DNA from: Escherichia phage PNJ-9
Sequence record: PQ100635.1
Length of the DNA stretch: 64,000 nucleotides
Reading direction: 5' to 3' (one strand)
Shown here: one piece after another, positions 26,463 through 55,744 of the stretch
How the letters are laid out: every line of letters begins with the position of its first letter
How positions within the stretch are numbered: the stretch's first letter is position 1
Notes under the pieces: model-generated
The model's input: the letters and a program-made list of their open reading frames with translations, nothing else
What the model was told of the DNA's origin: nothing
Database searches by the model: none
Position numbers and translations under genes: made by a program

Positions 26463-27148
<686 letters not shown>

Positions 27149-47091: not shown

Positions 47092-47271
47092 ATGACCCGT
47101 GAACAAGCTAATAAATTGATGGACCTTATCCATGACTTACGTGAAGCTGATTCAGATTTAAATGATGTAGCTTATCATGCAGTAAATGACTGTGGAGACT
47201 TTTATGAAAAACAAGTTGATTCTCGTCAGAATGATTTGGTGAATTTTGTTGAAACTTTAATTGGTGAATAA
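47092..47271 (+). CDS. small acidic protein, REQ-family paralogue
   Basis: 59-aa ORF (below the ORF-track cutoff) MTREQANKLMDLIHDLREAD...; resembles the 44915/45103 pair. Confidence 0.35.
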   Translation: MTREQANKLMDLIHDLREADSDLNDVAYHAVNDCGDFYEKQVDSRQNDLVNFVETLIGE

Positions 47272-47272
47272 T

Positions 47273-47803
47273 ATGAAAACTGTAATTGAAACAACCGAAC
47301 TGTTCGGTGATTTGACTATCGAAAAACGTGGTAATGTATACGTTCTGACTCAGGAAGATGATGGTATTACTATTTGTCCTATGGAACTAGACGAGATTTT
47401 GAAACTCAATCCGCCTGGTCATGCATCGGCAATTAATATTGGTGGAGACCTTCAGGCTCGTTTTTATCATGGGCTTTATAACGGTGCTAATATCGAAACT
47501 GAAGACAAATGCCTTTCTATCGATAACTGGAAAACATTCGTTGCTAAGGTGAAAGAATTCTTGGAATCCGAACCACCTGAAAAGGCTAAACTTAAATGGG
47601 GTATCAGTCGTGGTGCTTACATTATTAATCCAATAGCTCCAAACTATACCACGACTTTGGCAGTCATGAATTCTTATGAAGATGGTGATGTCGTAACTAT
47701 TCGCCAAAATGATGATTTACGTTCACATGTTACTACATTTACCAAAGACGAAGCTGTAGCTCTTAAAGCTTATCTTGATTCTATTATCCCGACTTTGAAA
47801 TAA
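47273..47803 (+). CDS. hypothetical protein
   Basis: 176 aa from ATG 47273 (MKTVIETTELFGDL...). Confidence 0.5.
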   Translation: MKTVIETTELFGDLTIEKRGNVYVLTQEDDGITICPMELDEILKLNPPGHASAINIGGDLQARFYHGLYNGANIETEDKCLSIDNWKTFVAKVKEFLESEPPEKAKLKWGISRGAYIINPIAPNYTTTLAVMNSYEDGDVVTIRQNDDLRSHVTTFTKDEAVALKAYLDSIIPTLK

Positions 47804-47812
47804 GGAATTATT

Positions 47813-48286
47813 ATGATTATCAATGAAAACTCTTGGCACTTTAAAATTTATGCCGCGTTCAATAGTACATGGAATCGCCCTAAAACGTTGTGTGCTTATT
47901 TTTGGAAAACGTTAATCCCGGTATTGTCTGTTTCAATTATCGGATTTGCGATTTTAGCAGCAGTAACAATCATTGGCCAGGAAATTTTAACTAGATTCTT
48001 TGTTTTTAGCAGTCTATGGACATTAGTTCCAGCCTCAATTGGCGTAGGCATTTTAATGGTAGCAGTCATGGCTTTTATTTCTGCCGGGTTGGTAATTGGT
48101 CCGTCTTGGTTGTTAGACAAATATAACGACAGAAAATATTATAAAGAAATTGAGTTCATTGCACAAAACCAAGAACGAATTAAAAATGGACTTGAACCTA
48201 TTGAACGTAAGAAATCATTAATAGGTGAATACATTAAAGCTCGTAAAGAAAAAGTCTGTCCTACTCTTGAATATAAGGCTAAATGA
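47813..48286 (+). CDS. 2-TM membrane protein coupled to the nucleotidyltransferase-like gene
   Basis: 157-aa ORF with two long hydrophobic helices; its stop overlaps the next start (ATGATGA). Confidence 0.5.
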   Translation: MIINENSWHFKIYAAFNSTWNRPKTLCAYFWKTLIPVLSVSIIGFAILAAVTIIGQEILTRFFVFSSLWTLVPASIGVGILMVAVMAFISAGLVIGPSWLLDKYNDRKYYKEIEFIAQNQERIKNGLEPIERKKSLIGEYIKARKEKVCPTLEYKAK

Positions 48287-49272
48287 TGAAAACAATTATG
48301 AAAGGCTACTTTGGTAGCCACCTTTATGGAACGTCTACTCCTGAATCTGACGTCGATTTTAAAGAAATTTATGTCCCTCATGCTCGTGATATCTTGACCG
48401 GTAACGTTAAAGAACACATGAGCAAGAACACGAATAACACATCTTCTAAGAACACAAAAGACGACGTGGACCATGAGTTGTATAGTCTCAAATATTTCTT
48501 TAAACTAGCTGCGGACGGTGAAACAGTCGCATTAGATATGCTTCACACTCCACCAAGTTTAGTAGTTAAATCTGATTTGCCTGATGTATGGAAGTATATT
48601 CAAGATAACAGGTCTCGTTTCTATACCACTAACATGAAATCTTATTTAGGGTATGTCCGTAAGCAAGCTTCTAAATATGGTGTCAAGGGTTCTCGACTAG
48701 CTGTTCTTCGTCAAGCCCTTAAACGTTCTAATGAATGGGGACAATACTTTGATAATGGTGCAGTAATTCGTTTATCACATATGAAGAATGTTCTGCCTGT
48801 AGGTGAATTTGCTTCGTGGGTTGAAACTGAAAACGAGAAAACAGGTAAGCAAACATTCTATAATCTGTTAGACCGTAAATTCCAAGACACGTTAACCAAT
48901 AAAGAGTTCAATGCCATCCTTGTTAAACTGGAAGAGAACTATGGCGAACGTGCTCGTAAGGCAGAAGCTAACGAAGGTATTGACTGGAAAGCATTGAGTC
49001 ATGCATGTCGTGGTGGACTTCAATTATTGGAAATTTACAAAACAGGCGACCTGGTTTACCCACTTCAGGATGCTCCATTTATTCTCGATGTTAAGCTTGG
49101 TAAACATACGTTTAAAACTGTACAAGAATTCCTAGAAGATATCGTTGACCAAGTTGAACATGCGTCAGAACAAGCTGCCAAGAACGGTATGCAACAAAAA
49201 GTAGATATGAGTTTCTGGGATGATTTCCTTGAGCAAGTCTATCTCGAAAATCATAATTCTTACTATAAATAA
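48283..49272 (+). CDS. predicted Pol-beta-superfamily nucleotidyltransferase
   Basis: 329-aa ORF; N-terminal GSHLYGTSTPESDVDF fits the hG[GS]x9-13Dh[DE]h NTase signature. Confidence 0.6.
   Translation: MMKTIMKGYFGSHLYGTSTPESDVDFKEIYVPHARDILTGNVKEHMSKNTNNTSSKNTKDDVDHELYSLKYFFKLAADGETVALDMLHTPPSLVVKSDLPDVWKYIQDNRSRFYTTNMKSYLGYVRKQASKYGVKGSRLAVLRQALKRSNEWGQYFDNGAVIRLSHMKNVLPVGEFASWVETENEKTGKQTFYNLLDRKFQDTLTNKEFNAILVKLEENYGERARKAEANEGIDWKALSHACRGGLQLLEIYKTGDLVYPLQDAPFILDVKLGKHTFKTVQEFLEDIVDQVEHASEQAAKNGMQQKVDMSFWDDFLEQVYLENHNSYYK
49264..49271 (+). promoter_or_regulatory. T4-type late promoter (TATAAATA)
   Basis: Exact TATAAATA overlapping the NTase stop codon, 33 nt upstream of the 49304 ATG. 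Confidence 0.55.
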
Positions 49273-49303
49273 ATAGATAAATAACCATTCACTTGAGGTA
49301 AAT

Positions 49304-49573
49304 ATGAAAAAATTAGTAATTGGTTTATTCGCAGTAATGATTGCGTTCTCTGTTGGTGCAGCCAGCGGTAGTGCAGGAGCTGGTGGTAACCAAACTTCTG
49401 GGCCTTCTAATGGTTCGGTAAATGCATCACATTCTCAGGGTATTGAGAACATTAAATCAAGCTATATTAATAGCACGGCCGGACAAGCAACTGAAGCATG
49501 GTCAAAGGGACGAGTAGTTACTCGCTCCGTATTCTGTGATATGCCTAATTATGTTGCTAAGTGCGATAAGTAA
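49304..49573 (+). CDS. small secreted protein
   Basis: 89-aa ORF with signal peptide MKKLVIGLFAVMIAFSVGAASG and a Gly/Ser/Asn-rich mature region; late promoter upstream, hairpin downstream. Confidence 0.5.
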   Translation: MKKLVIGLFAVMIAFSVGAASGSAGAGGNQTSGPSNGSVNASHSQGIENIKSSYINSTAGQATEAWSKGRVVTRSVFCDMPNYVAKCDK

Positions 49574-49578
49574 ATGTG

Positions 49579-49597
49579 GGGACCTTCGGGTCCCTTT
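49579..49597 (+). terminator. C(UUCG)G hairpin / weak terminator
   Basis: GGGACC-TTCG-GGTCCC followed by TTT; near-copy of the 30877 element including the CCCTTTAGGGGG alternative stem. Confidence 0.5.
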
Positions 49598-49624
49598 AGG
49601 GGGTTAAAATATTTTTAAAAAGTA

Positions 49625-49653
49625 GTGTACATGCTTTTAGGATATGTTATTAT
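49625..49653 (+). promoter_or_regulatory. T4-type early promoter
   Basis: GTGTAC 49625-49630, 17-nt spacer, TATTAT 49648-49653, then TAGACCTATCAAAAC leader. Confidence 0.45.
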
Positions 49654-49691
49654 AGACCTATCAAAACGAAATGAGTAAATTGGAGAATAAA

Positions 49692-50672
49692 ATGTTCAAC
49701 GTTCAAATCAAAAAAGGTATCTATCGTAATAACGAAATCTCTGGTTCTTATGTTGCCACAAAGACCTGGTTCCCAGCAAAGCTTAATCCTGAATGTTCCC
49801 ACTTAGGTGATGGTAAAATTTTCGTTATGATTGATGGTTCTGAACGCGGAGTATGGGTCTTCAAATCAGACATCGTAATGGAAGGAGTTGAGACGTCACC
49901 AGTTGCAGTTGTTGAAAGCACTGAAGATATGAAAACTCGTATCAACAAACGTTTTAAAGTAATGAACATGATGACGAATGGCATTATCGATGGCAAAATT
50001 CGTTCACTCATTATTTCAGGTGCAGCTGGTATTGGTAAGACGTATTCTCTGGATAAAGCACTTAATAATGCTAATGATAACGGTTTCATCAAATACAAAA
50101 GCATTAATGGTAAAATCTCTGGTATTGGCCTTTACGAACAACTTTGGCTCAACCGTGATGCGGACAGCGTTCTCTTAATCGACGACGTTGACGTATTCTC
50201 AGATATGGACATCTTGAACCTTCTTAAAGCAGCATTAGATACTGGAGATAAACGCAAAGTTTGCTGGAGCACTGCGTCATCTTATCTCGATGATAAGGGT
50301 ATTGATAAAGAATTTGAGTTTGAAGGTACTATCGTTTTCATTACAAACGTTGATATCGATAAAGAGTTAGAACGCGGTTCGAAACTTGCCCCACACCTTC
50401 AAGCTTTAGTATCTCGTTCAGTGTATCTCGACCTTGGAGTACACTCTAATGAAGAGATTATGGTTCGAGTTGAAGATGTAATATTATCTACTGACATGAT
50501 GCAGAAACGTGGTCTGACAGATGCAGAAACGTATAAAGCCTTGTCCTGGATGAAGGCTAACGTATCTCGTCTTCGCAATGTATCATTACGTACGGCTCTT
50601 TACGTAGCAGATTTTATTTCAACTGATAAAGATGGTTGGGAAGAAATCTCGGAAGTTACTTTACTGAAATAA
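49692..50672 (+). CDS. AAA+ family ATPase
   Basis: 326 aa from ATG 49692 (SD GGAG); Walker A GAAGIGKT, Walker B VLLIDDVD. Confidence 0.65.
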   Translation: MFNVQIKKGIYRNNEISGSYVATKTWFPAKLNPECSHLGDGKIFVMIDGSERGVWVFKSDIVMEGVETSPVAVVESTEDMKTRINKRFKVMNMMTNGIIDGKIRSLIISGAAGIGKTYSLDKALNNANDNGFIKYKSINGKISGIGLYEQLWLNRDADSVLLIDDVDVFSDMDILNLLKAALDTGDKRKVCWSTASSYLDDKGIDKEFEFEGTIVFITNVDIDKELERGSKLAPHLQALVSRSVYLDLGVHSNEEIMVRVEDVILSTDMMQKRGLTDAETYKALSWMKANVSRLRNVSLRTALYVADFISTDKDGWEEISEVTLLK

Positions 50673-55075: not shown

Positions 55076-55488
55076 TGAGATATAGCCTTCGTTGTTTTAT
55101 CGCAGCTTTAGTTTTTGCTATTATTCCATTCATTTGGAACAGCCAGAATACTTACATGGAAACTAAAGTAATTCCTGTGGAGGTAGTGGAATTAATCTCA
55201 GGCCAATCTACAGGAAAATATTCTAAATTGGAATTTATTGCAGTTTATAAAGATGAACAAGGTCGAGTTTTTGACAGGCATGTATCACCGTCGTTTTATA
55301 CGCTTCTGAATAAAGGTGATACGATAGCTATAGAAATTCGTGAGATGGATATCAAACAAACTACTAAAGATAACTTGATTTGGTTCTTTGGTACAGTGTT
55401 GTTGGTTTCTATCTGTATCACAGGTTTTATTACATGTATTGTATTTGGCATTGCATATTTAATCGATGAAAGGAAAAATAATGTTTAA
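55075..55488 (+). CDS. membrane protein
   Basis: 137-aa ORF with N- and C-terminal hydrophobic helices. Confidence 0.5.
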   Translation: MRYSLRCFIAALVFAIIPFIWNSQNTYMETKVIPVEVVELISGQSTGKYSKLEFIAVYKDEQGRVFDRHVSPSFYTLLNKGDTIAIEIREMDIKQTTKDNLIWFFGTVLLVSICITGFITCIVFGIAYLIDERKNNV

Positions 55489-55744
55489 AGTGTACGGGTA
55501 CGACTCTACTATTCATAAATGCATTTATTGCGATAATGCGAAACGATTGCTGACTGTTAAGAAACAGCCATTCGAATTCATTAATGTTATGCCAGAAAAA
55601 GGTGTTTTTGATGATGAGAAAATTGCTGAGCTTCTGGTTAAGCTTGGACGTGAATCACAAGTCGGATTGACTATGCCTCAAGTGTTTGCTCCTGATGGAA
55701 CTTCGATCGGTGGCTTTGACCAACTACGAGAATATTTTAAATGA
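55481..55744 (+). CDS. nrdC: thioredoxin/glutaredoxin NrdC
   Basis: 87 aa MFKVYGYDSTIHKCIYCDNAKRLL...; CIYC redox motif; matches T4 NrdC as recalled. Confidence 0.85.
   Translation: MFKVYGYDSTIHKCIYCDNAKRLLTVKKQPFEFINVMPEKGVFDDEKIAELLVKLGRESQVGLTMPQVFAPDGTSIGGFDQLREYFK

Follow-up and report, generated by a model that had tools for sequence, protein, structure and literature searches.

The 64,000-nucleotide stretch of Escherichia phage PNJ-9 that we analysed (sequence record PQ100635.1; hereafter the window) contains, one after the other, genes for a 157-aa membrane protein with two transmembrane (TM) segments, a 329-aa nucleotidyltransferase (NTase), an 89-aa protein with a signal-like N-terminus and an AAA+ ATPase. 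Our analysis shows that the NTase is a DNA polymerase beta (Pol-beta)-fold enzyme of the RlaP family and the orthologue of T4 NrdC.11, and that its gene is inherited independently of the TM gene overlapping it. A previous reading of this DNA, made from the letters alone (the sequence-only reading), had placed all four open reading frames (ORFs) correctly and had proposed that the first two constitute a coupled unit, as its top candidate for an uncharacterised system. However, the NTase and AAA+ genes have long been annotated as T4 nrdC.11 and nrdC.10, which in 2006 were assigned to the COG3541 nucleotidyltransferases and the AAA ATPases, respectively (PMC1524935). Thus, the feature is already known: it consists of orthologues of annotated T4 genes, and both the NTase family and a mechanistic hypothesis have been published. 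Accessory genes in their own right encode the two-TM protein, the 89-aa secreted protein and NrdC.10. As a whole, the region is on balance best explained by four independent genes, among which the RlaP-type NTase probably adds nucleotides to RNA 3'-OH ends in the course of counter-defence repair.

An RlaP-family nucleotidyltransferase

The stretch shares 95-98.5% identity with Tevenvirinae phages and its gene order is that of T4, i.e. tk, rI.1, rI and, further along, mobD.1, (mobD), nrdC.11, nrdC.10, nrdC.9 and nrdC.8. The region under study is the mobD.1/nrdC.11/nrdC.10 stretch, which is conserved in T4-like phages. Identity to the T4 orthologues amounts to 78% for the NTase (NrdC.11) and 77% for the AAA+ protein (NrdC.10), and the NTase matches phrog_388 at 2.6e-126. 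Residues 7-152 of the NTase match Pfam PF10127 (RlaP, for RNA-ligase-associated Pol-beta; 'RNA repair pathway DNA polymerase beta family') with 49.1 bits as compared to a cutoff of 23 (E 7.7e-13). A profile made from distant members recovered 105 distant homologues, 87 of which carry PF10127 according to a precomputed Pfam column. Residue conservation was counted on an alignment of 81 homologues reaching down to 19% identity. The Pol-beta signature that the sequence-only reading had picked out, G11-S12 and D23-x-D25, is borne out by this alignment, in which G11, D23 and D25 are present in all 81 sequences and S12 in 80. A third catalytic acidic residue, the presence of which had been left as a check, is found at position 63, which is acidic throughout (Asp in 36 and Glu in 45 of the 81 homologues).

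The AlphaFold2 (AF2) model of the protein (predicted local distance difference test score (pLDDT) 90.3, predicted template modelling score (pTM) 0.77) adopts an NTase fold, comprising an alpha/beta N-terminal domain, a long helix at residues 119-154, a C-terminal domain made of helices and, at residues 309-328, a terminal helix. Foldseek comparison with the PDB yielded weak matches only, without exception Pol-beta NTases whose second domain is helical, namely 3c18, kanamycin NTase, HalB, Tam41 and MNT. Neither of the two fold-match lists contains cGAS, CD-NTase or OAS, so that among the folds suggested for comparison by the sequence-only reading, MNT was matched, albeit weakly, whereas CD-NTase and OAS were not. 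The PADLOC defence models, which include the cyclases of the cyclic oligonucleotide-based antiphage signalling system (CBASS), gave no match to the NTase at E <= 0.1, and searching the PDB sequences with the NTase family profile detected neither HalB nor anything else. The crystal structure of PfRlaP, which is composed of an NTase and a helical domain with the terminal helix packing onto the NTase domain (bioRxiv 10.64898/2025.12.29.696909), is probably the true nearest structural neighbour of the phage enzyme. The catalytic GS...DxD...D/E signature is common to the phage NTase and the RlaP family and, as judged from the description of PfRlaP, the arrangement of NTase domain, C-terminal helical domain and terminal helix predicted for the phage enzyme may be so as well.

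Proposed function in RNA-end repair

Biochemical data come from two RlaP enzymes of Pseudomonas, which append one or two nucleoside monophosphates, with deoxynucleoside monophosphates also being accepted, to the 3'-OH end of RNA. DNA is not extended, RNA was the only substrate among E. coli macromolecules, and the 5' half of a cleaved-tRNA mimic is favoured over the 3' half (bioRxiv 10.64898/2025.12.29.696909). In the same study, RlaP was hypothesized to be an antidote to RloC-like nucleases, which cleave tRNA and subsequently excise a nucleotide, and T4 NrdC.11 was assigned to the RlaP family, where it belongs to a separate similarity cluster and is listed with 'unknown function'. Iyer et al. 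2021 described RlaP as the commonest template-independent NTase of jumbo phages, with a distribution that tracks that of RNA ligases (PMC7824862).

By analogy, the activity of the phage NTase would equal that of the Pseudomonas enzymes, and we infer that it serves in counter-defence RNA repair in vivo. That is, an RNA 3'-OH end is probably bound in the cleft between the NTase domain and the helical domain at the C-terminus, whereupon the enzyme would add one or two nucleotides in a template-independent manner. This addition could replace the nucleotides excised from cleaved tRNAs by host RloC-type anticodon nucleases or, alternatively, trimmed RNA 3' ends might be the target and be rebuilt. 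Phage polynucleotide kinase and RNA ligases could subsequently join the ends to yield a functional tRNA again. As a functional setting for the phage NTase we propose tRNA repair in T4, where the kinase-phosphatase PseT and Rnl1 counteract the anticodon nuclease PrrC. T4-like phages carry pseT, rnlA and rnlB, and RlaP adjoins such genes in some relatives. However, the classical PseT/Rnl1 pathway does not require nucleotide addition, and RlaP would therefore be relevant only against nucleotide-removing nucleases such as RloC. The sequence-only reading had mentioned that NTases may act as nucleic-acid modifiers in counter-defence, which comes close to the explanation preferred here, in that RlaP-type repair of RNA ends would be the task of the enzyme in the phage. 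T4 nrdC.11 is an RlaP-family gene in a well-developed phage model, and the proposed RloC-countering role is directly testable.

The genes surrounding the NTase in distant relatives are in several cases related to RNA. Of the loci having neither the TM gene nor nrdC.10, that of Alishewanella phage Slicko01 contains a CCA-adding enzyme gene (PolyA_pol 4e-22; L006 3652-5888) that runs with its 3' end into the start of the RlaP gene, and that of Rhodobacter phage RcXuper has RlaP encoded amid a large array of tRNA genes (L007 5001-5990). At IMG/VR locus L085 a T4-type RNA ligase (Rnl1) is encoded two genes upstream of RlaP, and at locus L080 Pnkp is encoded two genes downstream. A marine T4-like contig (L093 2351-9008; L094) carries, in this order, genes for Rnl2, Rnl1, the TM protein, Thy1 and an AAA_33 P-loop kinase, the latter overlapping the RlaP start, and appears to harbour an RNA-repair island. 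The T4 genome itself encodes pseT, rnlA, rnlB and stp.

Several observations weigh against a function in RNA repair. Of the 28 dereplicated NTase loci without a TM gene, just a handful had RNA-repair neighbours, and as RNA-related neighbours represent a minority of the sampled contexts, this function is supported but not proven. The genes pseT, rnlA and rnlB are located beside the NTase gene neither in the window, from which they are absent altogether, nor in T4. The limitation of the PF10127 match to the N-terminal part of the NTase indicates that the C-terminal half has diverged. Moreover, the phage clade forms a similarity cluster apart from the assayed enzymes, T4 NrdC.11 being a member of cluster 5 and the Pseudomonas enzymes of cluster 1a (bioRxiv 10.64898/2025.12.29.696909). 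Finally, T4 tolerates the loss of the block from nrdC.11 to mobD.3 in the laboratory (PMC9825161). A side observation concerns the 159.7-kb record OL964745.1, titled Escherichia phage T4, in which only residues 291-329 of NrdC.11 are left; it looks like a deletion derivative, which agrees with the dispensability of nrdC.11.

It is conceivable, albeit rather unlikely, that the NTase repairs or matures the 3' ends of phage or host tRNAs, i.e. the acceptor or CCA end, instead of acting on breaks in the anticodon loop. The overlap with the CCA-adding enzyme gene in Slicko01 and the tRNA array of RcXuper would suit such a function, as would the tRNA genes that T4-like phages carry themselves and the finding that any RNA 3'-OH end is extended by RlaP in vitro (bioRxiv 10.64898/2025.12.29.696909). 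However, the in vitro preference of RlaP is for the 5' half of the tRNA mimic and not for the acceptor-bearing 3' half, and the RNA ligase or Pnkp encoded beside other relatives suits the repair of breaks. In addition, tRNA maturation in T4 relies on the CCA-adding enzyme of the host, which argues against a redundant phage activity. Transfer of a nucleotide to a protein (AMPylation, as by DrrA or GlnE) or to a small molecule (as by the aminoglycoside NTases) is an improbable alternative in light of the membership in RlaP, which is established by sequence, the exclusive use of RNA by RlaP among E. coli macromolecules and the RNA-related gene contexts of the relatives.

Independent inheritance of the TM and NTase genes

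The stop codon of the TM gene and the start codon of the NTase gene share the sequence ATGATGA at position 48283, resulting in the 4-nt overlap that the sequence-only reading had pointed out. Among the ORFs on the + strand of the window there are 16 overlaps of the ATGA type and six one-base overlaps. As such overlaps are routine in this genome, the one between the TM and NTase genes carries no specific information, and a TM gene overlapping an NTase gene in a T4-like genome is no evidence of a signalling system.

To describe the neighbourhood of the NTase, all ORFs within 6 kb were searched with iterated hidden Markov models at 79 IMG/VR NTase loci, which range in identity from 100% to 40%. 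Both nrdC.10 and the TM gene were detected at 35 loci, only the TM gene at 10, only nrdC.10 at one and neither of them at 33. Thus, 45/79 loci possess the TM gene and 34/79 do not. In 44 loci the TM gene is located 0-2.6 kb upstream of the NTase gene, and the 45th locus contains an overlapping TM match. Direct adjacency of the two genes is seen in 11/79 loci, and 0.3-2.6 kb of unrelated genes lie between them in the 33 others. In the T4 genome as a whole, the NTase was recovered with an E-value of 8e-157 and NrdC.10 with one of 4e-187, whereas no TM homologue or remnant of one was detected. The slot between mobD.1 and nrdC.11 is occupied in T4 by the HNH homing endonuclease gene mobD (L002 16430-17209), exactly where the TM gene is situated in the window. 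The genome of Vibrio phage ICP1 clearly encodes a TM homologue (gp169, E 1.8e-27) and contains neither NTase nor NrdC.10, even at E <= 1, and Grimontviridae-like phages as well as a Yersinia jumbo phage have the TM gene without a nearby NTase gene. Because T4, ICP1 and 34/79 loci keep one gene without the other, coupling of the TM and NTase genes is unsupported: each is inherited independently of the other, and the TM protein is no obligate partner. Co-occurrence of the pair, which the sequence-only reading had suggested to follow across T4-like genomes, is thus not accompanied by co-variation, and the coupled unit has to be given up. What is found instead are conserved ORFs of the T4 nrdC region that do not co-vary, the very outcome that this reading had itself named as speaking against its proposal.

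The same data bear on the very improbable possibility that the NTase and the AAA+ ATPase NrdC.10 cooperate as a two-component machine. Their genes are 0.1-2.3 kb apart in 36/79 loci, distant Acinetobacter phages included. However, NrdC.10 is not encoded within 6 kb in the other 43 loci, the genes are separated by 57 kb in Aeromonas phage 50AhydR13PP, and nrdC.10 is preceded by a promoter-like site of its own in the window. NrdC.10 was found in 1,311 phage records, including those of Ackermannviridae, Alcyoneusvirus and jumbo phages, in which it occurs in contexts without an annotated NTase. Thus, it is distributed independently of the NTase.

A nucleotide-signalling pair made up of the TM protein and the NTase, be it CBASS-like or Hailong-like and acting in exclusion, lysis timing or counter-defence, is barely credible. 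In the first case a cyclase would produce a second messenger by which the membrane effector is opened, in the second the NTase would produce an oligonucleotide gating a membrane channel. This idea draws on the order of the genes with their 4-nt overlap, on the upstream position of the TM gene in 44/79 loci, with the overlapping match in the 45th, and on a sub-threshold match to Saf_2TM in one of 19 TM family members (E 1.3e-4, 22.3 bits as compared to a cutoff of 29.5). However, the NTase belongs to PF10127, lacks a PADLOC, CD-NTase or cGAS-like fold match, and its family profile misses HalB by sequence. The TM protein has no Pfam family and no similarity to solved chains, matching generic hairpin folds only. 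Furthermore, T4 has the NTase without the TM protein, ICP1 and Grimontviridae-like phages have the TM protein without the NTase, 34/79 loci lack the TM gene, 33 others have unrelated genes in between, and ATGA overlaps are generic in this genome. Taken together, the distribution data largely refute a TM-NTase signalling pair.

The likeness to CBASS goes no further than a generic Pol-beta catalytic motif and a small membrane protein encoded next door. A CBASS-like cyclase was rejected, since neither PADLOC (E <= 0.1) nor Pfam yields a CD-NTase match and cGAS-like folds are not matched either. The TM protein remains below the threshold of every effector family, such as those of the Cap15, Saf_2TM or SLATT type, and the genes reside in a phage genome, not in a defence island. 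A Saf_2TM effector was considered and rejected: the sub-threshold match of the single family member concerns the hydrophobic hairpin only and was taken as compositional. Hence, the layout of CBASS-like cyclase and TM effector to which the sequence-only reading had likened these genes is left with no CD-NTase match, no effector family and no co-inheritance.

In the anti-phage system Hailong, the NTase HalB makes oligodeoxyadenylate and HalA is a DNA-gated membrane channel; HalA is reportedly toxic in the absence of HalB. As HalB partners with a membrane channel (review), resemblance to this system was tested explicitly. HalB is indeed among the weak fold matches of the phage NTase, but it has 217 residues as compared to 329 in the phage enzyme, and no relationship was detected at the sequence level. 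A tyrosine of HalB primes de novo DNA synthesis, whereas the phage NTase has no conserved terminal tyrosine for priming. That is, Y327 and Y328 of the window protein are not conserved and fall into alignment columns that are gapped in most homologues, and the C-terminal enrichment of tyrosine in 68 of the 81 homologues reflects the conserved Y320, a position in the terminal helix that can be taken by H, I or F instead. The TM protein resembles neither HalA, a channel with a DNA-binding crown domain, nor any other solved chain. In addition, the TM gene is not co-inherited with that of the NTase, and the independent distribution of the two contradicts an obligate pair of toxin and regulator. We read the similarity to HalB as common descent of template-independent terminal transferases. 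A very long shot would be that phage RlaP-like NTases generate short nucleic-acid products that either gate the neighbouring phage TM protein or serve as decoys by which oligonucleotide-guarded, Hailong-type channels of the host stay closed in the course of infection. The kinship with HalB would be functional in this case, and the phage counter-measure would be built on the same enzyme fold as the defence.

As regards the TM protein itself, its description as a two-helix membrane protein in the sequence-only reading holds: there are two long hydrophobic segments, the C-terminal tail is highly charged, and the AF2 model (pLDDT 83.4) is a membrane hairpin formed by helices 26-66 and 73-124. The protein matches phrog_944 at 6e-53. 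Pfam contains no family for it, solved chains show no sequence similarity, and its fold matches are generic helical hairpins only. The family is represented in 1,090 phage records, extends to ICP1 (gp169), the Yersinia jumbo phage and the Grimontviridae-like phages, and yielded phage or metagenome matches only, none annotated as cellular, in a protein-database search for homologues. A literature search on the family (ICP1 gp169) found nothing. Its invariant residues are C27, Y29, K147 and C149, and its signature consists of SWHY(K/R)L...SLC.YFWK ahead of the first TM segment and F(I/L)KA(K/R)K.K.CP.(I/L)EF at the C-terminus, with no conserved stretch of 7-10 residues. In the AF2 model, an N-terminal strand (residues 2-4) pairs with a C-terminal strand (residues 153-155), which brings both conserved Cys motifs to the same side of the membrane. 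Judged by this model, the paired motifs would be consistent with a small module in the cytoplasm that binds a metal or a ligand.

Accessory genes and candidate signals

The coordinates of the genes and candidate signals are compiled in Table 1. The AAA+ ATPase had been recognized as such by the sequence-only reading from its Walker A (GAAGIGKT) and Walker B (LLIDDVD) motifs, both of which are present. The assignment is corroborated by matches to AAA_16/AAA_22 in seven of eight NrdC.10 family members, the window protein itself scoring below the curated cutoffs. The match to phrog_1250 (1.1e-161) begins at residue 8, and translation likely starts at position 49692 rather than 49671. Members of the family have invariant SGAxGxGKT, DDxD and FITN motifs plus arginines and an optional N-terminal domain of ~90 residues. 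Weak profile matches include mS29/DAP3, Cdc6, TnsC, RFC and ORC1. By these sequence criteria, NrdC.10 is classified as an ORC/Cdc6/STAND-like AAA+ ATPase, an assignment at the superfamily level only. In many GenBank phage records the orthologues of NrdC.10 and NrdC.11 are named 'thioredoxin', although neither of them contains a thioredoxin domain. The label looks like it has spread from the gene names nrdC.10 and nrdC.11, and these entries merit correction.

Table 1. Genes and candidate signals in the mobD.1/nrdC.11/nrdC.10 region of the window
Feature	Position	Strand	Basis or remark
mobD.1 orthologue (y05I-like putative transcription factor)	47261..47803	+	upstream neighbour of the TM gene
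157-aa two-TM membrane protein, phrog_944	47813..48286	+	ORF, hydrophobicity, AF2
329-aa RlaP-family Pol-beta nucleotidyltransferase, T4 NrdC.11 orthologue	48283..49272	+	PF10127
T4 late-promoter consensus TATAAATA	49264..49271	+	exact match; 33 nt ahead of the 89-aa ORF and overlapping the NTase ORF at its end
89-aa protein, phrog_2243, N-terminal signal-like segment	49304..49573	+	ORF
Hairpin, 7-bp stem and UUCG tetraloop	49578..49595	+	directly 3' of the 89-aa ORF
Promoter-like site: TGTACA, 16 nt, TATTAT, extended TG	49626..49653	+	consensus scan; ahead of the AAA+ gene
AAA+ P-loop ATPase, T4 NrdC.10 orthologue	49692..50672 (326 aa); ORF opens at 49671 (333 aa)	+	phrog_1250

The 89-aa protein has a hydrophobic, signal-like segment at residues 1-24 and two C-terminal cysteines. 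It matches phrog_2243 at 8.8e-37 and, below threshold, the BLB8/JUQZ-1 family of NCBIfam (E 0.0096). Its gene was found in only two of the 79 IMG/VR NTase loci (L011 and one more) and in phage ST0 (L001), and is absent from the entire T4 genome. It is a small insertion confined to the nearest relatives and, like nrdC.10, is distributed independently. Late expression of this gene is probable. Of the late-promoter-driven secreted protein that the sequence-only reading had seen here, both the consensus and the signal-like segment are present, but TATAAATA occurs 14 times in the window as compared to 8.35 copies expected by chance, and the motif alone is suggestive only. The hairpin following the gene (minimum free energy -12.9 kcal/mol) has a z-score of only -0.82 and is not statistically exceptional; it is possibly a terminator or an RNA-stabilising element. 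The promoter-like site ahead of the AAA+ gene includes a sequence similar to a MotA box, ATGCTT. Promoter-like sites are no commoner in the region than in shuffled sequences.

Upstream of the TM gene, the mobD.1 orthologue matches Pfam T4_y05I_N (1.9e-36) and T4_y05I_C (1.1e-13) and is 43% identical to T4 mobD.1 in a tblastn comparison. The 59-aa ORF at 47092-47271 has an orthologue in ST0 that is called 'helicase loader' in RefSeq, which is implausible given the size of the ORF and the region. Farther away, positions 26690-27145 of the window contain the orthologue of T4 57B (85% identity), to which the RefSeq record of T4 gives the label 'RNA ligase'. The orthologue of the thioredoxin NrdC is found at 55481-55741 (90% identity). 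From the presence of these two orthologues, it follows that the window spans roughly T4 map positions 42 to 105 kb.

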